A stretch of DNA of 64,000 bases from Escherichia coli (GTDB taxonomy: Bacteria; Pseudomonadota; Gammaproteobacteria; Enterobacterales; Enterobacteriaceae): the NCBI RefSeq assembly GCF_041248615.1, contig NZ_CP158426.1, one strand, 5' to 3'. Positions 14,853 through 39,322 of this stretch are shown piece after piece (position 1 is the first letter of the stretch; every line of letters starts with the position of its first letter). The position numbers were made by a program, and so were the translations under genes. The notes under the pieces were generated by a model. The model had not been told where the DNA came from, ran no database searches, and saw only the letters and a program-made list of their open reading frames with translations.

Positions 14853-14929
14853 TGGCGTGGCATGCAGGATTCGAACCTGCGACCAACCGCTTAGAAGGCG
14901 GTTGCTCTGTCCGACTGAGCTAATGCCAC
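14853..14929 (-). tRNA. tRNA-Arg (anticodon UCU), phage-encoded
   Basis: 77 nt; reverse complement GTGGCATTAGCTCAGTCGGACAGAGCAACCGCCTTCTAAGCGGTTGGTCGCAGGTTCGAATCCTGCATGCCACGCCA; 7-bp acceptor stem, T-loop GGTTCGAATCC, anticodon loop CTTCTAA, encoded CCA; close to E. coli argU in layout. Confidence 0.85.
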
Positions 14930-28860: not shown

Positions 28861-31335
28861 ATGAGACAGGAATGTATACAAGCGGTCCAGCAGGCGGCGC
28901 AGCGCACGTTAACGGCGCGAGAAATACAGAACATTGAAGACCGCATTTATCGAAATATGCGCTCCATTGCTCGTGATGACCCGATGTCGTGGAGACAACT
29001 TTCCGAATCAGAGCGGCTATATCGTGCAGCACAATTGGCATCTGAGGAATTACAGCGAGAAGCGGCATTAAAGAAACGTCGTGTGGCCCTCACTATAGCC
29101 GCACGTCAGAGATTGGATAAATTTATCAATAGCTATCAAGGGGCTGATGGGAAACTTGGCGCTCTTAACCGTACTATTGCTTTTAATGCAGACGGTAAAT
29201 CGAATTTCCTCTCTGTTGAGTCCAGAACAAAAGCCACTCGTGATTATGCATTGAGTCAATTGCAGGAGGCATTCGAAGCAGTTGATCCTCGCTTTTTTGG
29301 TCTGTTTGAAGATGAAGCGGGCGTACGTGACCTGGTATATGAAATGCGAGGGCAAAATACTGGCAATTCTAAAGCAAGAAAAGGTGCTAAGGCGTGGAGA
29401 GAAGTGACAGATCTACTGCGCCGCCGGTTTAATGATGCTGGTGGGGACATTGGCTATCTCGAAAACTGGGGGATCCCTCAGCATCATTCTATGGAAAAGG
29501 TTGGGGCGGTATCAAAGGATAAGTGGGTTAGCGATGTTATAGGTAAGCTGGATCGCAAATATTATATCCGAGCCGATGGACAACTGATGAACGATGCCGA
29601 GTTGTCTGCATTTCTTGGAGAGGCTTATAACACGATCGCTACTGGTGGGCTGAATAAGCTTACTGATACCGGAATGCGAATTTCCGGCGCACGTGCTAAC
29701 CGTGGTAATGCATCACGACAGATACATTTCAAAGATGCAGATTCCTATCTGCAATATCAGCAACTTTATGGCGATCGCTCTCTATGGGAAATCATGGTCG
29801 GTCACCTGGAAGGTATCAGTAAAGATATTGCACTGGTGGAAACATATGGCCCAAACCCCGATCATGTTTTCCGCTCTCTTCTTGATCAGGTGAAGGCAGA
29901 AACGGCAACAGCTAACCCGAGTAAAACCGGTAAAGTCGAGCGGCTGGCGAACAACACAGAGAATCTGTACAACTTTATTTCCGGAAAGACACAGCCTGTA
30001 GCGAATCCGCACATCGCGCGATGGTCTGACAATATCCGCAACTGGCTGGTTGCCAGCAGACTCGGATCTGCGTTGCTATCATCGTTCTCTGATCTTGGAA
30101 CCATGTATCTGTCTGCGAAGGTGACCAACCTTCCAATGAACCAGTTATTCCGCAACCAGCTTGAAGCTATGGACCCAACGAACCGTACAGAACTTGCGCG
30201 GGCGCGCCGCGCTGGTCTGGCGATGGAATCTCTACTTGGCAGCGTTAACCGCTGGGCGATGGATAATATGGGGCCGTCAGTGTCTCGTTGGGCGGCAACG
30301 GCGGTAATGCGTGCCAGTGGGCTTACAGCATGGTCAGATGCGCACAAGCGCGCCTATGGCGTAACCATGATGGGAAGCCTGGGAGAAGTAGTGTCACGGA
30401 CACCAGACCTTCGTAGCCTCGATGATTCTGATTTTCGTATCCTGAAAAGCAAAGGGATTACTGACACAGACTGGAGCGTATGGAAGCTGGCGCAACAGGA
30501 GGACTGGGGGAACGGTAATAATACGATGCTGACACCGGAAAGCATTATGCGTATCCCTGATTCAGCAGTTAAACATCTTGGTGAGCCTGAGCGCGTGAAA
30601 TTTGAGGCAATGCGTAAATTGCTAGGTGCCGTAACTGAAGAAGTTGATATGGCTGTTATTACACCGGGAGCTCGTGAGCAACTGATAACCGGTTCTGGTA
30701 TTCAGCGTGGAACATGGAAAGGTGAATTAACGAGAAGTGTTTTCCTGTTTAAATCTTTCCCTATCTCGGTTGTTATGCGTCACTGGTCACGCGCTATGGG
30801 TATGCCGTCTGCTGGTGGGCGTGCGGCATATATTGCGACGTTTATTGCCAGTACGACCATTCTTGGCGCTTTGTCGCAGCAACTTAACGACCTTGCGTCT
30901 GGTCGTAATCCTCGAGAGATGACAGGAGAAGATGCCGCAAAATTCTGGCTTGGTGCTCTACTGAAAGGTGGTGGTCTTGGCCTTTACGGTGACTTTTTAT
31001 TGTCAGATCACACCAGGTACGGAAGCGGCGCGCTGGCGTCGATGCTTGGCCCGGTAGCTGGTCTGGTTGATGACGTGGTGAAGATTGCTCAGGGCATACC
31101 GTTAAATGCTGTGGAAGGGAAGAGTGAGCAGACTGGTGGTGATCTGGTGAAGCTGGGGAAAGGTTTGATGCCTGGTGCGAATCTCTGGTATTTGAAGGCG
31201 GCTCTCGATCACATGATCTTTAACCAGATGCAGGAGTATTTTTCACCAGGCTATTTGCGTAAAATGGAGCAACGTTCGAAGAAAGAGTTTAACCAGACAT
31301 ACTGGTGGCGACCTCAGGATGTCACTCCGCAATAA
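28861..31335 (+). CDS. Large internal virion / ejection protein
   Basis: 824 aa, third of three consecutive large genes before tailspike. Confidence 0.5.
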   Translation: MRQECIQAVQQAAQRTLTAREIQNIEDRIYRNMRSIARDDPMSWRQLSESERLYRAAQLASEELQREAALKKRRVALTIAARQRLDKFINSYQGADGKLGALNRTIAFNADGKSNFLSVESRTKATRDYALSQLQEAFEAVDPRFFGLFEDEAGVRDLVYEMRGQNTGNSKARKGAKAWREVTDLLRRRFNDAGGDIGYLENWGIPQHHSMEKVGAVSKDKWVSDVIGKLDRKYYIRADGQLMNDAELSAFLGEAYNTIATGGLNKLTDTGMRISGARANRGNASRQIHFKDADSYLQYQQLYGDRSLWEIMVGHLEGISKDIALVETYGPNPDHVFRSLLDQVKAETATANPSKTGKVERLANNTENLYNFISGKTQPVANPHIARWSDNIRNWLVASRLGSALLSSFSDLGTMYLSAKVTNLPMNQLFRNQLEAMDPTNRTELARARRAGLAMESLLGSVNRWAMDNMGPSVSRWAATAVMRASGLTAWSDAHKRAYGVTMMGSLGEVVSRTPDLRSLDDSDFRILKSKGITDTDWSVWKLAQQEDWGNGNNTMLTPESIMRIPDSAVKHLGEPERVKFEAMRKLLGAVTEEVDMAVITPGAREQLITGSGIQRGTWKGELTRSVFLFKSFPISVVMRHWSRAMGMPSAGGRAAYIATFIASTTILGALSQQLNDLASGRNPREMTGEDAAKFWLGALLKGGGLGLYGDFLLSDHTRYGSGALASMLGPVAGLVDDVVKIAQGIPLNAVEGKSEQTGGDLVKLGKGLMPGANLWYLKAALDHMIFNQMQEYFSPGYLRKMEQRSKKEFNQTYWWRPQDVTPQ

Positions 31336-31344
31336 GGAAGTGTT

Positions 31345-31518
31345 GTGTTTTTAATTATTTTGAGTGTAATAATTTCTGGTGGATTGTTATTTATTGACCA
31401 CTACAAATATTTTCTTAACCCTCAGACTCAAGCTATTTGCTGGTTCATCTTTGTTGTGCAGGGAGTAGTTCTTGTTGCAAGCCTTATTGAGGGGAGGCCT
31501 CTTATTTTTACTGGGTAA
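31345..31518 (+). CDS. Possible small hydrophobic protein (57 aa)
   Basis: GTG 31345 with SD AAGGA 5 nt upstream; hydrophobic translation; below track threshold. Confidence 0.3.
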   Translation: MFLIILSVIISGGLLFIDHYKYFLNPQTQAICWFIFVVQGVVLVASLIEGRPLIFTG

Positions 31519-31530
31519 ATAGGTGACTAC

Positions 31531-31827
31531 ATGCAAGCTATAGGATTCATTGTTTATATCGTCGTTGGTCTTTTTCAGTTGGCAGCAATTATGGCTGGGC
31601 TTGAATCATGGTGGGGATTGCACTGGATAATTGCAGCCCCCATCGCTTTCATCGTGAGCTATATTCCATTTGTTGGAGCGATTGTTGGTATGGTTGGCGC
31701 TGTGGATGTATGGCGGTGGGAGTGGTGGCAGGCTGGCCTTCTATTCTTTGGTGGGATAATCTTTGCTATTGTCTGCGGTGGAATGTCATCATTTTTCGAA
31801 TGGCTATCATTCAGAAAAGAGACGTGA
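31531..31827 (+). CDS. Small integral membrane protein (3 predicted TM helices)
   Basis: 98 aa, highly hydrophobic; stop TGA lies inside GTGACATGTCAC. Confidence 0.5.
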   Translation: MQAIGFIVYIVVGLFQLAAIMAGLESWWGLHWIIAAPIAFIVSYIPFVGAIVGMVGAVDVWRWEWWQAGLLFFGGIIFAIVCGGMSSFFEWLSFRKET

Positions 31828-31835
31828 CATGTCAC
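31824..31835. repeat. 12-bp palindrome GTGACATGTCAC (copy 3 of 3)
   Basis: Exact; overlaps stop codon of membrane protein gene; terminator hairpin starts at next base. Confidence 0.9.
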
Positions 31836-31860
31836 AGGCCGCTTTCGCGGCCTTGTTTTT
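31836..31860 (+). terminator. Rho-independent terminator
   Basis: Stem AGGCCGC/GCGGCCT, loop TTTC, followed by TGTTTTT. Confidence 0.7.
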
Positions 31861-32020
31861 AACGAATGCCACCGCCGCCCGGGCGGGAATCCGCAGAACG
31901 CCCACCGCAGCGGGAGCCGTCAGCGGCAGTATCGCTGTCGTGCTGACAACGGCCGGCAAAGGCCTGAGTTGAAGCTACCAGAGACAACAAAACGAACAGT
32001 GCAGCAAATGCTTTTTTCAT
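31859..32020 (-). CDS. Possible small secreted protein (signal peptide), start at internal Met
   Basis: MKKAFAALFVLLSLVASTQAFA signal-like N-terminus; weak RBS. Confidence 0.3.
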   Translation of the reverse strand: MKKAFAALFVLLSLVASTQAFAGRCQHDSDTAADGSRCGGRSADSRPGGGGIR

Positions 32021-32094
32021 TGTGAAAAATTTCCATCTATAAGCCACCTCAATGTGGCGTCAATGAGTGTAGCACTGACTTTTGTTTCGTCCAC

Positions 32095-32117
32095 AAAAAA
32101 GCCCGCAGCGCGGGCTT
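32095..32117 (-). terminator. Rho-independent terminator of AT-rich moron gene
   Basis: Stem GCCCGC/GCGGGC with A6 on plus strand; overlaps stop codon. Confidence 0.65.
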
Positions 32118-32655
32118 ACCAAAACTTGTACCACGGGGATTTATCCTTCAATGGACAATCCTTCCATCGTGTGGCCAACCATTCATATTCTTTAAAATAT
32201 GTGTTTATGTTTTCTTTTTCTCTAATGGCTTGTATAAGAGGTAGCGCAATCTGATAGTTATTTACAACGGAGCTGTAAAATACTTCCTTAATCATGGTCT
32301 CATCATAAGTTTTCCGCTTCACGCTCACAGCCATGCGTTCGTAGAAACCTAGACAGTAAATTATTTCTCTCTTCTCTGTCTTTTCTTCATCCGTAAGATC
32401 AGCCTGCCCATTGCTTGGATACATATAAGAGCGGAATGATTTGTTCGATTCGTGAATGCGGCGCATAGTAGATAGGCCTTTCTTATAATCTACATCAAAC
32501 CTGCTTTCACCAAGGAATACTGAAGTGTGTACTTTTCTCGCTGTATTTACATTATAAATAATAGTAGCGATAGCTATGAACAAGCCAAGCGAAACCGCGA
32601 CTGCACTTACGATTTGAGCCACAGCCATGGCAAATTGCATTTCTTCACTTAACAC
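32116..32655 (-). CDS. AT-rich moron: membrane-anchored protein (N-terminal TM helix plus ~140-aa cytoplasmic domain); candidate superinfection-exclusion / abortive-infection factor
   Basis: 179 aa; GC visibly lower than flanking phage DNA; own GTG start with GGAGA SD, own terminator; lies in a position analogous to P22 sieA (between ejection genes and ant). Confidence 0.55.
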   Translation of the reverse strand: MLSEEMQFAMAVAQIVSAVAVSLGLFIAIATIIYNVNTARKVHTSVFLGESRFDVDYKKGLSTMRRIHESNKSFRSYMYPSNGQADLTDEEKTEKREIIYCLGFYERMAVSVKRKTYDETMIKEVFYSSVVNNYQIALPLIQAIREKENINTYFKEYEWLATRWKDCPLKDKSPWYKFW

Positions 32656-32784
32656 AAACTGTCTCCAGACATGAAAACGGGGCCTAATGGCCCCGTCATT
32701 AAACTATCCGAATGTTAAACGCCTTCGTACTCGTCAAATTTTCTCATGTGGGCTCCTCCTGTATCGGTGCCTAATCGCTATGGA

Positions 32785-32799
32785 TCACCCGTGAGGTAA
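32785..32799. promoter_or_regulatory. Operator-like palindrome TCACCCGTGAGGTAA
   Basis: TTACC-N5-GGTAA variant in gap between moron and ant genes. Confidence 0.4.
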
Positions 32800-32865
32800 T
32801 AGTAAGCTATTCACCTGCAATCTGTACAGAATTATTTAAAGGCACATCCCTGTGCCGCCGCCCCG

Positions 32866-33576
32866 TCAGAAGAACCCTGCCTTGTCGTTGATGTATTCCG
32901 CGTGAGTCTGGATATCACGCAGGCATTTGCTCACACCGACGATGTAGCAAAACATGGTGGTCAGCTCCGCCGCCGCGCCCGATACGTCGTGCCCGTCGTC
33001 CTGTAACTGGTTCAGCAGATTCATCAGCAGTGAGTTCTCCGTCAGGCCGAGAACACCAGACGGAGAATGAATCAGACTGCGGTAGCCGGGCTTCAGTGGG
33101 GCGCTGTAGGTTTTGTTCTCTATCTTCATTGCCTGCATCACTGCTGATGCTGTGGCGTTGGCTACCTGGTCGGCAACCATCTTTATGCGTTCTTCCTGCG
33201 GGAGCGAGTTTTTAATGTAACTTCCGGTGCGGCGGATCTGAGGAAGAACCTCACCTGTAACCCATTTACGAAAGCGGTAGGGGATAGTGCCTGGTGTCAC
33301 CGCATCGCGGCAGCGGAGGATCAGTGTGTAGAGGCCTGACTCGGAGATGATGTTGATCTCTTTTACTCGGCTGTCAAAAATCGCACGATGTTCATGCCCT
33401 ATGTTGAACATAGACCTTTCATCATCATCCAGTTTTTCAAGTGATTGGGTGACGTTTTGGATACGCAGCGCACTACAAACGTCTTGGGCTACAAACCATG
33501 GTTGGCCATCGATAATGATGGAACGGATAGGGTTAACAGATTCAAATTTGAAGATGGCAGTTTGAGCATTAGCCAT
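32866..33576 (-). CDS. Antirepressor (Bro-N domain plus C-terminal Ant-type domain)
   Basis: N-terminus FKFESVNPIRSIIIDGQPWFVAQDVCSAL...ISESGLYTLILR...VLPQIRRTGSY is a Bro-N signature; ATG 33576 has GGAG SD (track GTG start 33591 rejected). Confidence 0.7.
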   Translation of the reverse strand: MANAQTAIFKFESVNPIRSIIIDGQPWFVAQDVCSALRIQNVTQSLEKLDDDERSMFNIGHEHRAIFDSRVKEINIISESGLYTLILRCRDAVTPGTIPYRFRKWVTGEVLPQIRRTGSYIKNSLPQEERIKMVADQVANATASAVMQAMKIENKTYSAPLKPGYRSLIHSPSGVLGLTENSLLMNLLNQLQDDGHDVSGAAAELTTMFCYIVGVSKCLRDIQTHAEYINDKAGFF

Positions 33577-33594
33577 GGTGGTTATCTCCACTTA

Positions 33595-34344: not shown

Positions 34345-36927
34345 ATGACGGTCTCAACCGAAGTTGACCACAACGAATACACCGGTAACGGAGTTACGAC
34401 ATCGTTTCCGTATACTTTCCGCATTTTCAAAAAATCCGACCTGGTTGTTCAGGTGTCTGACCTGAACGGGAACGTAACAGAATTGGTTCTGGATACCGGT
34501 TATACAGTAACTGGAGCTGGCACTTATAGTGGCGGTTCTGTGGTTCTTCCGTCTCCGCTTGCTACTGGATGGAGAATTACGATAGATCGTGTGCTTGATG
34601 TAGTACAGGAGACAGATCTTCGCAATCAGGGAAAGTTTTTTCCCGAAGTGCATGAAGATGCCTTTGACTACCTGACGATGCTGATCCAGCAATGTTTTGG
34701 GTGGTTCAGACGTGCATTGATGAAACCATCTTTGCTTGCAAAATATTACGATGCAAAGCAAAACAGAATTTCTAACCTTGCAGATCCATCACTTGAGCAG
34801 GACGCTGTAAATAATCGCTCAATGCGTAATTATGTCGATGCTGCAATCGCCGGAGTTGTTGGTGGTTTTGGTTGGTTTATTCAGTATGGTTCTGGGGCAG
34901 TATACAGAACGTTCCAGGATAAGATGCGTGACGTTTATAATGTTAAAGATTATGGGGCGAAAGGTGACAATATTAACGATGATACGCTAGCATTTATTGC
35001 AGCAGCAAATGCTCTCGGAGAGGGCGGAAAGTTATATATTCCAACAGGAACATACAATTTAACTGGTCCAGTTAATATACCACCAGTGAATATGTGCGGC
35101 GATGGGCAGGGTGAAACAGTTATTGTGTTTGACAATACCACATCACCAAAAGACGGCTTTGTTTTCGCTGCGCCAACTAAATATGATATTGAATTTGGTT
35201 TAAGTCACCTTACAGTTAAAAGAAAAGGCGGGAATGGAGCTAATGCTATATATACCCCAAGAGGTGTCGGGCTTAACCATCTAAGACCAAAACCAACATT
35301 TAGATTTTTATCTTTCTGTTCTGAAACTGCAAATATTGATTCTGATGAATTCGCTCAGAAATACGGCTGGGAATGGTCTTTTAACTGTGGTGATAGTTGG
35401 CAGTTCACAATCGAACGCATTGATGCTGTTGGATGTTATCAGATAGCCAAAAGTTATAATGAACAGTTCCTTGATGGATTCATTCGCACCGCTCCAGAAG
35501 AGGGGATTTTATCAATGCGTGTGAGTGATATCACAACGCATAATGTTGCAAATTTTTTTGAAATTAAGCAGAAGACATATTTTACATTGCTTAATATTGA
35601 TGCCGCCAAGGCATTACGAGGCATTTACGACGCTGATGATCGTATATTTGAAACGAATCGTTATGCTTATGGTGAATGTATATGCACAAATGTTGGTATT
35701 AATGCCCAACTTGAACCAGTACGGCTGGATAACAGATTCCTGCTCATCATGAATGGTATGTTTATTCACCGCGCAGCAAAAGGTTACGATCATGGTCTGG
35801 AATGGGTTGGTCTTAAGCTTAGTCGTGCTCGCGTGTGTTCATTCCAGGGAATTGAGATCGGCACTGCCAGAGGGTATTCAGGGACTAAGAAAGGGATTGT
35901 TCTTGACGCCGGTGATGCAAATAACTTTACCAATGTAACTTTTGGTTTGCTTGATGTGTGCGCACAGATTGGCGATTCCAATTCACAGTATGGTGCCAAC
36001 TTTGCAACATGCTTTAATAATGTGAGCATTAATGCTGACACCGTATTGTTATTCGATTTGCAGCTATGCAGAAATTTCCATTGTGATGGATACGGAGCAT
36101 CTTCTGCCTACACTCTTCAGCAATTCCATAGGAACAGTGATGACACAAGCAATACTTATACATTTAGTAATGTAGGTAAACACAATCTCTACACTGACAA
36201 CTCGCTGTACCTACATAATTCTGCTTCGCTGGAGAACGGGAAGAATATACGTATTGATACACGAAACGGATTATCTGTTAGCACTCAAGCAGATACTGGT
36301 TCCGCAGGAAATAACTTCCTTATAATTCGTAGGACTGGTGTTGATATAGACAGTTTTGAGTTAAGGACTCGCAGTACAGCAGGTGCATATACATATATTA
36401 ATACACCTGAAACTCATTTTTCTGGCCTTATAAAACCAACTGTTGATAATGTTAACTCAAACGGAACATCAGCATTTCGATGGTCACAGGTATACGCTGG
36501 TACTGGCAGTATCAACACGTCGAATGAAGAGCTGAAATTGCGTATTGAGGCTGACGAGAAAACAACAGAATCAGAGCGTCTTGCTGCGCTTGAAATAAAG
36601 GAAAATATCTGGAGGTTTAAATTTAAAGATGCAGTAAAGATCAAGAGTGATGGCGCTCGGATTCATTTCGGTGTTGGTGCACAAACTGTAGGTAATATTC
36701 TCAGAAAATACGGTCTTGACCCTAATAACTATGCGTTCTGGTGTTATGATGAATGGGATGATATTTATGCTCCAGAAGTATTGATTAGGAGTGTTAAAAA
36801 CAATGAAACAGGAGAGTGGTACGACGAGGAATATTACACAGGAAGGCAGATTATTATTAAACCTGCTGGCTATCAGTATGGTATCAGATACGAGGAACTT
36901 CTGATGTTTATTCTTATGTTTATTTAA
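34345..36927 (+). CDS. Tailspike / tail fibre protein with conserved N-terminal attachment domain and AT-rich exchangeable distal part
   Basis: 860 aa; N-terminal ~190 aa at phage-typical GC, remainder AT-rich; Gly/Asn-rich beta-helix-like repeats; C-terminal segment possibly a chaperone-like domain. Confidence 0.7.
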   Translation: MTVSTEVDHNEYTGNGVTTSFPYTFRIFKKSDLVVQVSDLNGNVTELVLDTGYTVTGAGTYSGGSVVLPSPLATGWRITIDRVLDVVQETDLRNQGKFFPEVHEDAFDYLTMLIQQCFGWFRRALMKPSLLAKYYDAKQNRISNLADPSLEQDAVNNRSMRNYVDAAIAGVVGGFGWFIQYGSGAVYRTFQDKMRDVYNVKDYGAKGDNINDDTLAFIAAANALGEGGKLYIPTGTYNLTGPVNIPPVNMCGDGQGETVIVFDNTTSPKDGFVFAAPTKYDIEFGLSHLTVKRKGGNGANAIYTPRGVGLNHLRPKPTFRFLSFCSETANIDSDEFAQKYGWEWSFNCGDSWQFTIERIDAVGCYQIAKSYNEQFLDGFIRTAPEEGILSMRVSDITTHNVANFFEIKQKTYFTLLNIDAAKALRGIYDADDRIFETNRYAYGECICTNVGINAQLEPVRLDNRFLLIMNGMFIHRAAKGYDHGLEWVGLKLSRARVCSFQGIEIGTARGYSGTKKGIVLDAGDANNFTNVTFGLLDVCAQIGDSNSQYGANFATCFNNVSINADTVLLFDLQLCRNFHCDGYGASSAYTLQQFHRNSDDTSNTYTFSNVGKHNLYTDNSLYLHNSASLENGKNIRIDTRNGLSVSTQADTGSAGNNFLIIRRTGVDIDSFELRTRSTAGAYTYINTPETHFSGLIKPTVDNVNSNGTSAFRWSQVYAGTGSINTSNEELKLRIEADEKTTESERLAALEIKENIWRFKFKDAVKIKSDGARIHFGVGAQTVGNILRKYGLDPNNYAFWCYDEWDDIYAPEVLIRSVKNNETGEWYDEEYYTGRQIIIKPAGYQYGIRYEELLMFILMFI

Positions 36928-37343
36928 AATATAGCGCAGGGATGCGCTATTCAACTATTTTATAAAATTAATAACTATTCATGCGATATAATGTGGCCTC
37001 TTTTATCTTTGCAGAATTAAAAACTATAGAAAATATTTTGTATTATTATAAATGCTTCTGGATCATATTAATCAGTTTGCCATCTATTAGAACTTTGATT
37101 ATTGATGCATCAATTATTTAACATAGTGGTTGTGCGCAACTCCACTAACGATTGAATATAGATTGTTATTTTTGTTTACACTGTCACACAAGAACATCCT
37201 TACCTGTCAATCAACATTATTATTTTTTGATTCCATGATGTTGATTTGTGATGTAAAAAAATACATATTAAACCATATATGGATTGTAATTCGTGGTTAC
37301 AATTCTTGTTGTTTTTTTATGGTGAGATAAAAAAGGTGTTTTA

Positions 37344-37745
37344 ATGTCATTTCAATTAACAGGAGAGTCAATAAATCAATGGCTTAGCCTTGGTTCTCTA
37401 GCAGCGGTGATAGCAGGAGTGCCTCCAGAAGTAGCTCTTGGGTCTTTGTCAGGAGCGGTAATTTTTGTTACCTCTGCTGTAGAGTATCCTGTTCGTCGTC
37501 GTGTACTCTTGTCGATACTCAGCTTTCTTTGTGGTCTTCTCTTTTACAAACCAACTGCATCAATTCTTATAGGCATAGCCAGTCTAATTCCTACCATTAC
37601 TCAGGACTCTTTCGAGAAAGGGATTGTTTTCTCTGCTGGCGCATTTGTGTCAGCAATAGTCGCAGTGCGAATTGGCATCTGGCTCTATCACCATTCCGAT
37701 AATCCACGCGAGTTAATTCCTGGGAGAAAAGACGATGGTAACTAA
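37344..37745 (+). CDS. Putative holin (multi-TM membrane protein)
   Basis: 133 aa, several hydrophobic helices, first gene of lysis cassette. Confidence 0.5.
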   Translation: MSFQLTGESINQWLSLGSLAAVIAGVPPEVALGSLSGAVIFVTSAVEYPVRRRVLLSILSFLCGLLFYKPTASILIGIASLIPTITQDSFEKGIVFSAGAFVSAIVAVRIGIWLYHHSDNPRELIPGRKDDGN

Positions 37746-38043
37746 TGAGCTTGTTTTGCTTATCACCAATGCAGTTATTTGTACTGGCATAGCAATTCGC
37801 GTTGTCACATTCCGGCGTAACGGCTCTCAACACCGAAGGTTGGGAGGCTGGCTTGCTTATTTCCTGATTGTTGCTGCAGCTAGTATTCCTGTTCGTGTCG
37901 TCTATGCAATCTGGTTACGTACGCCAATGGCTGTGGATTTATCTGAGGTCATTATCAACGCTGTCATGCTTGCAGCGGTTATTAAAACGCGCGGTAACGT
38001 CGTGCAGATTTTTAAAATAACGAGGTCTAAACATGGAGATTAA
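37735..38043 (+). CDS. Putative second holin / antiholin
   Basis: 102 aa, three hydrophobic segments, charged C-terminus. Confidence 0.45.
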
Positions 38044-38662
38044 ACAATTCCAGCGAGCTGCTGGTATTAGCGAGGCGCTGGCCGCACGCTGGTTCTCGCA
38101 TATAACTTCTGCGATGAAAGAGTTTGGTATCAGCAAAACCGAAGATCAGGCAATGTTTATTGCTCAGGTCGGGCATGAGTCTGGTGGTTTCACCAGGTTG
38201 CAGGAGAATTTCAACTACAGTGTCAGCGGTCTAGCTAACTTCGTTCGGGCTGGGCGTCTCACTCAGGGGCAGGCTAATGCACTTGGTCGCCGTGCTGGTG
38301 AACCACCATTGCCACTTGAGCGCCAGCGCGCGATCGCAAATCTGGTATACAGCAAACGCATGGGTAACAATGCTCCCGGCGATGGCTGGAATTACCGTGG
38401 GCGCGGGCTTATCCAGATTACCGGTTTGAATAACTATCGTGACTGCGGAAACGGCCTAAAAGTGGACCTGCTGGAGAATCCTGAGCTGTTGACGCAGGGC
38501 GAATACGCGGCTCGTAGCGCGGCGTGGTTCTTCTCCAGCAAAGGCTGCATGAAGTATACCGGCGATATTGCACGTGTAACTTTGATTATCAATGGTGGCA
38601 GGAACGGCATCGACGACCGGAGAGCGCGGTACATCACTGCCAGTAAGGTGCTGGCGGTATGA
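38033..38662 (+). CDS. Endolysin, glycoside hydrolase family 19-like
   Basis: 209 aa; motifs GHESGGF and [15 protein letters not shown]. Confidence 0.75.
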
Positions 38663-39141
38663 TCTGGGCATTCGTAAAAGCATACTGGAAACAGTTGCTT
38701 ATCGTGGCGGTGCTTGCTGTTCTGGTCATATCAGGAGTTGTTGCCTGGAATGTACACGGTAGCCGTCAGTACGACGCCGGGTATGCACAGGCGAAGGAAG
38801 ACCGCAAAGCTGAAGATGAGAGAGTTCGTCAGCACTACGAACAGGAGAAAGCGACCAATGAACGTGAAGCTCAGCAGAGGATCGACCAGGCGCGCAATGA
38901 TGCTCTTGATGCTGCCGCTCGCGCTGGCCGGTTGCAGCAACAACTCTTTGCCATCCGTGAGCAGCTCAGGCAGTATAACGCCATTGTCGGCGCTGGGACA
39001 TCAGCCGCAGACACCGGAGTTTTGCTTGCCGACGTGCTCAGCAAATCTCTCGAGAGAAACAGACAACTGGCAGAGTATGCTGACCGGGCAGCCGAAGCCG
39101 GAAGAGTCTGCGAAAAACAGTACGACACTCTGACCAGATAG
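38659..39141 (+). CDS. Rz-like i-spanin
   Basis: 160 aa, N-terminal TM helix then coiled-coil; contains embedded +1-frame lipoprotein gene. Confidence 0.65.
38858..39133 (+). CDS. Rz1-like o-spanin lipoprotein embedded in Rz
   Basis: Alternate frame inside Rz; ATG 38858 with AGGAG upstream; signal peptide with lipobox LALAGC. Confidence 0.5.
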   Translation: MNVKLSRGSTRRAMMLLMLPLALAGCSNNSLPSVSSSGSITPLSALGHQPQTPEFCLPTCSANLSRETDNWQSMLTGQPKPEESAKNSTTL

Positions 39142-39292: not shown

Positions 39293-39322
39293 AAAACCCT
39301 CTGTTACTACAGAGGGTTTTTT
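39293..39322. terminator. Bidirectional intrinsic terminator between prophage end and yfgI
   Basis: Stem AACCCTCTG/CAGAGGGTT, A-run before and T-run after. Confidence 0.65.

Follow-up and report, generated by a model that had tools for sequence, protein, structure and literature searches.

Modular tailspikes of epsilon15-like and P22-like podoviruses

The exchange of receptor-binding domains (RBDs) between Lederbergviruses and Uetakeviruses, with anchors that are conserved within each genus, was described previously (Virol J 2023, PMC10408124). The anchor was reported to be about 205 aa long in Uetakevirus (phiV10) and about 124 aa long in Lederbergvirus, and a gene for O-antigen modification may sit behind the receptor-binding protein (PMC10408124). 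In both epsilon15 and phiV10, the tailspike gene is followed by a variable serotype-conversion slot, which is occupied by genes for an O-antigen ligase-family protein and a polymerase inhibitor in epsilon15 and by oac in phiV10.

The tailspike locus of Escherichia coli NRZ14408 is a clear case of this well-known phage mosaicism, a phenomenon already covered by PMC10408124. As in the modular receptor-binding proteins of that study, a conserved genus anchor is joined to an exchanged RBD, with a possible O-antigen modification gene behind it; here, however, a single cell harbours the same RBD in both phage types, and one RBD type spans O7 and O21 hosts. It is very probable that the tailspike consists of three pieces (anchor, beta-helix, and S74 chaperone) with separate histories and an exchanged cassette, and that a decayed acetyltransferase gene forms most of its AT-rich tail. 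The locus thus illustrates how host range changes in temperate podoviruses: the genus anchor stays, while the depolymerase-plus-chaperone cassette is swapped.

Organization of the tailspike locus

The window, i.e., the whole analysed stretch of 64,000 nucleotides of the NRZ14408 genome, contains a prophage integrated between guaA and yfgI. On the basis of identity and gene order, the prophage is an epsilon15/phiV10-like (Uetakevirus-like) temperate podovirus. Its tailspike ORF (34345–36927, plus strand) encodes 860 aa and is followed by a 416-bp gap, with the next gene starting at 37344. Comparison of the annotation with RefSeq, epsilon15, and phiV10 demonstrated an epsilon15-like position of the ORF, 3' of the tail/internal virion genes and a gp19-like gene and 5' of the lysis cassette. 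The genes for epsilon15 gp20 and phiV10 gp25 occupy the same genome slot, in the order gp19-like gene, tailspike, gp23-like/lysis genes. The conserved Uetakevirus lysis cassette (37344–39141, plus strand) includes a gp23-like membrane protein, a holin, a GH19 endolysin, and an Rz-like spanin, with Pfam matches to Phage_holin_8, Phage_holin_3_7, Glyco_hydro_19, and DUF2514. Nucleotide similarity to other Uetakeviruses (79–90%) picked up again at 37329–37372, mostly at the ATG at 37344. Judged by these alignments, the exchangeable region extends on its right side as far as 37344, where the conserved lysis cassette starts. An earlier note on this DNA had placed the ORF, the 416-bp gap, and a palindrome inside the gap correctly.

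Anchor, receptor module, and chaperone of the tailspike

The first 201 aa (34345–34947, plus strand) constitute a virion-anchor module of the Uetakevirus (epsilon15/phiV10) type. Residues 1–165 were 69% identical to phiV10 gp25 (E = 1e-66) and 72% identical to epsilon15 gp20 (E = 3e-68), and no similarity to the phiV10 and epsilon15 tailspikes was found past residue ~166. When compared with the PDB, aa 1–179 matched the tail fibre N-termini 28lx/8ck1 (E = 1e-32), and the Foldseek search with the anchor yielded 8ck1_B (47% identity). For the first ~590–650 nt of the gene, matches of 93–97% were obtained in Uetakevirus phages and in about 500 genomes of E. coli. By homology, aa 1 to ~201 are therefore a genus-typical anchor, which would plug the spike into the tail. 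The conserved N-terminal attachment domain proposed in the earlier note was thus confirmed by the ~500 genomes carrying the anchor and by the confinement of the phiV10/epsilon15 homology to aa 1–165.

The receptor-binding/depolymerase module (aa 202–725; 34948–36519, plus strand) comprises a right-handed parallel beta-helix and a short stalk. Pfam domain PF12708 was detected at aa 198–268 with 45.5 bits (cut-off 27). The AF2 model had pLDDT values above 90 over aa ~200–590, with uninterrupted beta-strands, and Foldseek matched the beta-helix to CBA120 TSP3 (4e-8), AlgE4/E6 (1e-7), and the Sf6 and HK620 tailspikes. The predicted structure thus supports a pectate-lyase-like right-handed beta-helix for aa 202–725. 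Candidate catalytic acids, e.g., D350, D360, D377, E406, D419, D429, D432, and E444, were invariant in the family alignment. We infer both enzymatic activity and trimerisation: as a trimeric beta-helix, the module would bind a surface polysaccharide and probably cleave it. The nearest receptor module in an isolated phage belongs to the tail spike of Escherichia phage PSK1 (PP541512.1), with 56% aa identity across 99% of aa 202–860, a divergence big enough for a possibly different specificity.

The remaining part of the protein (aa 726–860 with the stop codon; 36520–36927, plus strand) is an intramolecular chaperone domain of the peptidase S74 type. In the phmmer search against the PDB, the matches were 7y5s (1e-19), T5 pb1 4uw8 (2.5e-13), the endoNF chaperone 3gw6 (1.6e-9), and phi29 gp12 3gud (2e-7); aa 681–856 matched the solved chaperone domains of T5 pb1, endoNF, and phi29 gp12. 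Foldseek retrieved 3gw6, 4uw8, and 3gud for the C-terminal domain. Hence, over aa ~690–857, the tailspike resembles endoNF (3gw6), the T5 L-shaped tail fibre pb1 (4uw8), and phi29 gp12 (3gud/3suc) both in sequence and in predicted fold, and overall it is arranged like pre-mature phi29 gp12, with the chaperone behind the beta-helix. It differs from the epsilon15 and phiV10 tailspikes in having an unrelated receptor part with a C-terminal S74 chaperone. Residue S726 aligns with the cleavage serine of T5 pb1 that is mutated (Ser-to-Ala) in 4uw8, and a Ser/Lys pair five residues apart is located at the aligned cleavage site (S726-N-E-E-L-K731). The motif TS[DN]xxxK, with S726 and K731, was kept in 22 of the 26 family members. 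In comparison with the solved S74 chaperones, the domain scored just short of the Pfam cut-off (PF13884 at aa 726–790, 19.4 bits, gathering cut-off 22), whereas homologues of the receptor module exceeded it (e.g., P0017 with 58 bits and P0013 with 47 bits). Autocleavage is predicted from the alignment to occur between T725 and S726; the chaperone would drive folding of the trimer and then excise itself ahead of S726. The matches to solved chaperone domains and the conserved Ser/Lys pair bear out the chaperone-like C-terminal segment that had been suggested.

Exchange of the receptor module between unrelated prophages

The junction between the anchor and the receptor module was located at 34949. 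The segment encoding aa 202–860 was found in 13 of the 5426 genomes, and the complete gene together with the gap in six. A second copy is present in strain NRZ14408 itself, in a P22-like phage (“phage_14408_1”), whose Lederbergvirus-type tailspike (WP_192459817.1) is about 98% identical at the nucleotide level over 34949–36960 and 97% identical at the amino acid level from residue ~202 to the end. A block of 1428 nt (35422–36849, plus strand) is 100% identical between the two unrelated prophages. That tailspike is anchored by a P22 head-binding domain (PF09008, 129 aa), in contrast to the 201-aa epsilon15-type anchor described here. The two copies also share the hairpin after the stop codon, and an intact gene of a CatB-related O-acetyltransferase is located 3' of the P22-like tailspike gene, whereas only a remnant is left in the window. 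At least four types of anchor occur among relatives of the receptor module; its homologues bear PF09008, PF18668, or PF03906 anchors, or lack one. The horizontal exchange of a receptor-binding module claimed in the earlier note was therefore substantiated by the ~98% match on another anchor and by the variety of anchors among the relatives, and the separate comparison of the two halves gave clearly different distributions (~500 genomes for the anchor, 13 of 5426 for the module).

According to the mechanism that we propose, the receptor part, the chaperone, and the hairpin after the stop codon would move as a cassette by recombination between unrelated phages. Since the breakpoints at 34949, 36960, and 37344 are fixed within a few bases, they may aid the grafting of modules onto epsilon15-like or P22-like chassis.

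The presence of the same module on two anchors in a single strain goes slightly past the textbook picture, as do the strain-specific SNPs in both copies. The SNPs at 36066 and 36289 were common to both NRZ14408 copies and absent from all other carriers. The 5' part of the module (34949–35421, plus strand) was polymorphic. There, the chromosomal allele of the RefSeq record is identical to that of strains GF4 and AR_0085 and differs from the P22-like copy of the same strain at 69 of the 473 sites. In the window, this 5' part interleaves the two alleles, with 38 differences from the chromosomal allele, 31 from the P22-like copy, none unique, and about 30 allele switches.

The sequence of the window at 34952–35403 may be a consensus artefact of the assembly. 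More broadly, it is moderately probable that assembly or polishing produced both the interleaved alleles and the near-identical sequence of the receptor modules in the two NRZ14408 prophages, in which case the strain would really have a single type of copy or two copies that differ more. In 34949–35421, each site that distinguishes the alleles has exactly one or the other state in the window (38 + 31 = 69), a pattern unlike natural conversion tracts. Compared with the RefSeq record for these coordinates, the window is discordant at 40 sites (34952–35403, 36906, and 36952); in addition, the P22-like phage is a separate contig of 41 kb, the ends of which abut assembly gaps. Against this stands the independent occurrence of each allele type in other strains: the chromosomal type was also found in GF4, AR_0085, TUM9803, and EC17CM13, and P22-type fusions were also found in A10, LSC52, GF43, and 2018-10-1CC. 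Because both allele types are present in other strains, the conclusion that the tailspike is a mosaic is independent of the NRZ14408 assembly. It is also conceivable, though rather doubtful, that the co-resident epsilon15-like and P22-like prophages keep their receptor modules identical by ongoing gene conversion, and that the module recognises something beyond a single O serogroup. If true, host-range modules would evolve in concert inside a polylysogen.

Host O serogroups of the module carriers

The O serogroups of four carriers were as follows: NRZ14408 and Br_112_kylling belong to O7, and GF4 and TUM9803 to O21. An O7-specific module, as the O7 host might suggest, was rejected: NRZ14408 and Br_112_kylling were the only two with the module among the ~82 listed of the 96 O7 genomes, and GF4 and TUM9803 are O21. 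Since the carriers include both O7 and O21 strains, the receptor is not assignable, and the data do not fit a simple rule by which the prophage RBD corresponds to the host O serogroup. The earlier statement that the module determines host range is best kept as a suggestion, given carriers in at least two O serogroups. The occurrence of the module in two serogroups, which is also slightly past the textbook, calls for caution in predicting the serogroup from prophage RBDs alone.

Composition of the gap between the tailspike and lysis genes

Directly after the tailspike stop codon, a GC-rich hairpin, ATAGCGCA-GGGA-TGCGCTAT, is located at 36931–36950. Its folding energy was -11.4 kcal/mol on the plus strand and -11.0 kcal/mol on the minus strand, so it is terminator-like on both strands; the promoter/terminator scan, in which this hairpin alone stood out, flagged the minus strand. 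The hairpin lies within the sequence that the prophage has in common with the P22-like phage, which extends to 36960. Of the three P22-like tailspike loci that were aligned, NRZ and A10 have retained the hairpin, which there also contains the stop codon of the acetyltransferase gene; in VN_P22like it was not conserved, and similarity stopped inside the hairpin.

The hairpin is followed by a decayed 3' remnant of a CatB-related O-acetyltransferase gene (36947–37180, minus strand), convergent with the tailspike gene. The P22-like copy of the tailspike is followed by an intact, likewise convergent, gene of this type. When the initial 40 nt, which are shared, were left out, the local DNA alignment of the remnant with that gene scored 53; 300 shuffles gave 11.8 +/- 1.4 and at most 20. 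Collinear peptide matches to WP_000953884.1 were observed at aa 136–153, 159–170, and 174–180. The terminal “...KIVE*” is kept, and stops occur in all three minus-strand frames. No intact acetyltransferase ORF was found in the gap, only the C-terminal ~38% being recognisable, which corresponds to a pseudogene remnant. Thus, as in epsilon15 and phiV10, a serotype-conversion slot follows the tailspike; here, its conversion gene is reduced to a remnant. The nucleotide identity of the remnant to the intact gene is about 68%, compared with 98–100% for the adjoining receptor module; therefore, the remnant and the module differ in history, and “one cassette” is a simplification. The 416-bp tail does not simply belong to the module: no more than its first 33 nt accompany the receptor module, and the next ~220 nt are the acetyltransferase remnant. 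In the proposed mechanism, the cassette would once have carried a convergent O-antigen acetyltransferase gene (serotype conversion, superinfection immunity), which would survive intact in the P22-like phage, with a stop-riddled 3' stub making up most of the AT-rich tail here.

The remnant contains the perfect 14-nt palindrome ATTGATGCATCAAT (37101–37114); at the aligned position, the intact homologue has ATTGATTCCTCAAA, which is not palindromic. Five perfect 14-nt palindromes were counted in the window, compared with 4.1 +/- 1.9 in composition-preserving shuffles, at least one occurred in 8.5% of the shuffled gaps, and the folding energy of the palindrome as a hairpin was -1.7 kcal/mol. The palindrome pointed out previously is thus present at chance frequency and has no special significance; a role as a binding site was rejected for this reason and owing to the non-palindromic counterpart. 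Small ORFs in the gap (46 aa at 36981–37121, 66 aa with a TTG start at 37130–37330, and shorter ones) were likewise discarded as lacking support in a region that is a pseudogene remnant.

The gap ends with an AT-rich spacer (37181–37343), for which comparison with the acetyltransferase gene, its upstream region, and the EC.W1-9 slot gave nothing above the shuffles. The spacer was found only in the six genomes with the whole cassette, to which the gap as a whole is also confined among E. coli. BLAST revealed no similarity of the gap to other phages, including the regions behind the tailspike genes of epsilon15, phiV10, and ZX5, and an Rfam scan of 36500–37800 gave no match at E <= 1.

Alternatively, the tail might regulate the lysis cassette as a promoter/operator, an H-NS-silenced switch, or a small RNA, and the palindrome might be bound by a protein; we consider this improbable. 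The lysis genes do need a promoter or read-through beyond the hairpin at 36931–36950, the gap is 98.7–100% conserved in all six carriers, and several promoter-like hexamer pairs are present (e.g., at 37017–37046, plus strand). However, the six copies are too alike to reveal selection, promoter-like sites numbered 11 compared with 12.1 +/- 3.3 in shuffles, the Rfam match is lacking, such palindromes are no commoner than in shuffles, and the intact acetyltransferase gene lacks the symmetry at this site. Furthermore, the gap has nothing in common with other Uetakeviruses; therefore, it holds no conserved regulatory element. The reading of the tail as mostly a decayed acetyltransferase gene is thus preferred.

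Base composition of the locus

The GC content was 0.445 in the N-terminal 604 nt of the tailspike gene, 0.398 in 34949–36927 (GC3 of the receptor part 0.31), and 0.276 in the gap, compared with a mean of 0.497 for the remainder of the prophage. The receptor part is more AT-rich than every other 1979-nt window of the prophage (minimum elsewhere 0.446), and the gap is more AT-rich than every other 416-nt window (minimum elsewhere 0.375). Since no other prophage segment of either length is equally AT-rich, the compositional shift is real. Windowed GC analysis thus showed a non-uniform composition with the receptor part and the gap as outliers, and the AT shift reported near 34,900 was borne out, with the recombination junction at 34949. 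The description “strongly AT-rich” applies to the gap (0.276) but not to the gene (0.40). The low GC of the entire segment would stem from its foreign origin.

Low GC by itself is no proof of transfer, because conserved neighbours are also low in GC: the anchor, at 0.445, falls under the prophage mean, and so do the conserved genes for the gp23-like protein and the holin (GC 0.44, GC3 0.32–0.40). Nevertheless, it is extremely unlikely that the receptor module evolved in place, its low GC reflecting a functional or codon constraint of beta-helix tailspikes. The sharp limits of homology at 34949 and 36960/37344 already refute this view; together with the presence of the same module on a P22-type anchor and with the anchor's presence in 500 genomes versus 13 for the module, these breakpoints show exchange directly and independently of composition. 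The N-terminal part of the gene, for which a GC content typical of the phage had been stated, actually lies at about the 5th percentile, with a GC3 of 0.40 versus 0.52–0.58 in the portal and capsid genes.

Mosaic Structure of the Tailspike Gene

A single long open reading frame at 34345–36927 (+) encodes the tailspike of 860 aa, and the next gene in the ORF list begins at 37344, leaving a gap of 416 bp, as the earlier note had read from the sequence. That note had also described the gene as a mosaic of a conserved N-terminal attachment domain and a horizontally exchanged receptor-binding part, which the homology searches bore out. When 34345–37343 was compared by megablast with 5426 complete E. 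coli genomes, the first ~590–650 nt of the gene were matched in about 500 of them, and the entire query in only six. The isolated phages phiv142-3, ZX5, EC.W1-9, and HEMP4 matched the gene over its first 350–650 nt only, and the match of epsilon15-like Salmonella phages (73–75%) had the same limits. At the protein level, aa 1–165 were 72% identical to epsilon15 gp20 and 69% identical to phiV10 gp25; past aa 165, comparison with these two proteins revealed no similarity. A separate set of genomes matched query nt 605–2616 (34949–36960), in a gene labelled “phage tailspike protein” with a CatB-related O-acetyltransferase gene behind it. Among them was NZ_LT599830.1 (“phage_14408_1”), 41 kb in length and P22-like, which comes from NRZ14408, the strain of the window. 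The tailspike of this phage, 788 aa long (the P22-like copy), consists of the P22 head-binding domain PF09008 and a part 97% identical to aa 190/202–860. Relatives of the receptor family, obtained by searching aa 196–725 against 5.8 billion proteins, carried PF09008, PF18668 (TSP1/Gp66 N), or PF03906 (T7 tail fibre N) anchors, and some were nearly without an anchor. The receptor core (35422–36849) was present in only 13 of the 5426 genomes. Thus, the limited homology of the anchor, the presence of the module on other anchors, and its rarity directly demonstrated horizontal exchange, independently of composition. Compared separately, the two halves had different matches, namely Uetakevirus-type anchors and P22-like tailspikes.

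The GC content was 0.445 in the first 604 nt of the gene, 0.398 in the rest (34949–36927), and 0.276 in the 416-bp gap, compared with 0.497 ± 0.02–0.03 in the remainder of the prophage. The receptor part and the gap were each more AT-rich than any equal-size window elsewhere in the prophage, in line with the shift noted previously; however, the anchor ranks near the 5th percentile, so that “typical of the phage” does not fully apply to it. The GC3 values were 0.40 for the anchor and 0.31 for the beta-helix part, against 0.52–0.58 for the portal and capsid genes. At third codon positions, both conserved membrane/holin genes at 37344–38043 are likewise low in GC (GC3 0.32 and 0.40). Since these genes belong to the backbone, low GC alone is no marker of recent transfer in this phage.

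The tailspike locus is a new allele of an already described type of modular receptor-binding protein (RBP), in which a genus-specific anchor (~205 aa in phiV10) is combined with an exchangeable receptor-binding domain (RBD) and an O-antigen modification gene optionally lies behind the RBP; RBD exchange between Lederberg- and Uetakeviruses is specifically covered (PMC10408124). The earlier observation was therefore confirmed and its interpretation supported, with corrections concerning the tail, the palindrome, the receptor, and part of the window sequence.

Domain Organization of the Tailspike Protein

The anchor (aa 1–179) matched the tail-fibre N-termini 28lx/8ck1 (1e-32), and PF12708 scored above threshold at aa 198–268. 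The AlphaFold2 model, built with 27 homologues, had pLDDT >90 over aa ~200–590 and consisted of beta-strands throughout; Foldseek matched it to CBA120 TSP3, AlgE4/E6, and the Sf6 and HK620 tailspikes. A possible chaperone-like C-terminal segment had been proposed, and aa 681–856 indeed matched the solved intramolecular chaperone domains 7y5s (1e-19), T5 pb1 4uw8 (2.5e-13), endoNF 3gw6 (1.6e-9), and phi29 gp12 3gud (2e-7), by fold (Foldseek) as well as by sequence, although the score of the Pfam S74 model was slightly under the cut-off. The mutated cleavage serine of 4uw8 aligned with S726, and the S-x4-K pair (S726, K731) was kept in nearly all domain-bearing family members. We infer autocleavage before S726, which would yield a mature spike of 725 aa. 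Endosialidases, phi29 gp12, and T5 pb1, all represented among the PDB matches above, are known examples of beta-helix spikes with S74 chaperones.

Origin of the 416-bp Tail

Similarity to the P22-like locus runs 33 nt beyond the tailspike stop, across a GC-rich hairpin at 36931–36950 (dG about −11 kcal/mol, either strand). In other Uetakeviruses, similarity restarts at 37344, and 36961–37343 was restricted to the six genomes with the whole cassette. The same slot holds minus-strand serotype-conversion genes in epsilon15 (an O-antigen ligase-family protein and a polymerase inhibitor) and the minus-strand serotype-conversion gene oac in phiV10. With its first 40 nt left out, the gap scored 53 (shuffles 11.8 ± 1.4, maximum 20) in alignment with the CatB-related acetyltransferase gene behind the P22-like tailspike, over the 3' part of that gene. 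The peptide matches were collinear with acetyltransferase aa 136–180, the terminal “...KIVE*” was kept, and stops occurred in all three frames. Homology and stops together mark 36947–37180 as a pseudogene remnant of this acetyltransferase, so that most of the tail, correctly described as AT-rich, is a decayed gene; the last ~160 nt of the gap lie outside the remnant. The gap matched no Rfam family, and promoter-like sites were not in excess there. The palindrome ATTGATGCATCAAT is located at 37101–37114, as reported, within the remnant, and the counterpart stretch of the intact gene is non-palindromic. The palindrome is unremarkable, because five perfect 14-nt palindromes occur in the window, where 4.1 ± 1.9 are expected.

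Two Copies of the Receptor Module in NRZ14408

The RefSeq counterpart of the window is 1440001–1504000 of the E. coli NRZ14408 chromosome (NZ_LT599825.1). The two were identical across 43 kb save 40 sites, all in the tailspike region: 38 within 34952–35403, plus 36906 and 36952. At 40/40 of these sites the window has the base of the P22-like copy; elsewhere, where the chromosomal and P22-like copies differ, it has the chromosomal base. The window sequence is never unique and switches allele ~30 times in 470 nt. GF4 and AR_0085, two independent strains, have exactly the RefSeq chromosomal allele. The site-by-site mix indicates that the interleaved stretch probably arose during consensus building or polishing, as an artefact of two co-resident repeats; it touches aa ~203–353, without effect on any conclusion. 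Downstream, 1428 nt are identical between the two NRZ14408 copies, and SNPs 36066 and 36289 are common to both and absent from every other carrier. This suggests either recent exchange or gene conversion in NRZ14408 or the same type of artefact; the two SNPs would fit gene conversion involving both prophages.

NZ_LT599830.1 is a complete P22-like phage genome of 41,305 bp. It was assembled into a linear contig of its own, whose two ends each hold part of the terminase gene, and may represent a phage that had excised or was replicating, or else an unplaced prophage. In addition to the same receptor module, it has an intact CatB-related O-acetyltransferase gene adjoining the integrase.

Receptor and Host Serogroup

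The O-antigen cluster of NRZ14408 is O7 (locus L016, NZ_LT599825.1 1994598–2008679). Among the O7 genomes listed, the module was found besides NRZ14408 only in Br_112_kylling, whereas GF4 and TUM9803, carriers of a near-identical tailspike, are O21 (GF4 cluster, locus L017, 61621–66992). Since carriers are both O7 and O21, the receptor is not assignable from host serogroup, which runs counter to the common view of prophage RBDs as matching the serogroup of the host. In Br_112_kylling (NZ_CP182371.1, 2182163–2185788), an IS4-family transposase splits the same tailspike gene; thus, the spike of that prophage is inactivated.

Prophage Organization

The prophage of ~39 kb is flanked by guaA and yfgI. 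From one end, it carries an integrase and early genes, then terminase, portal, and capsid genes, including “capsid staple gp10,” followed by a T7 gp14-family core protein, large internal proteins, BRO-N and DUF4760 morons, and the tailspike; 3' of the latter are a gp23-like membrane protein, a holin, a GH19 endolysin, and Rz. This gene order is the epsilon15/phiV10 (Uetakevirus) layout, and the lysis genes showed 79–90% nucleotide identity to phages of that type. A tRNA-Arg is annotated at 14853–14929 (−), with a Gp49-family gene on one side and the portal gene on the other. The moron-like minus-strand genes, located after the tail genes and before the tailspike, encode a DUF4760 protein (179 aa) and a protein with a BRO-N domain (241 aa), and lie in a second AT-rich patch upstream of the tailspike (GC 0.39–0.44; 31200–32850, and 32116–33591 on the minus strand). 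A strong terminator-like hairpin with a 12-bp stem, AAAACCCTCTGT...ACAGAGGGTTTT, followed by a T run, is located at 39293–39320, 3' of Rz and directly ahead of the host gene yfgI, close to the right end of the prophage (attR region).
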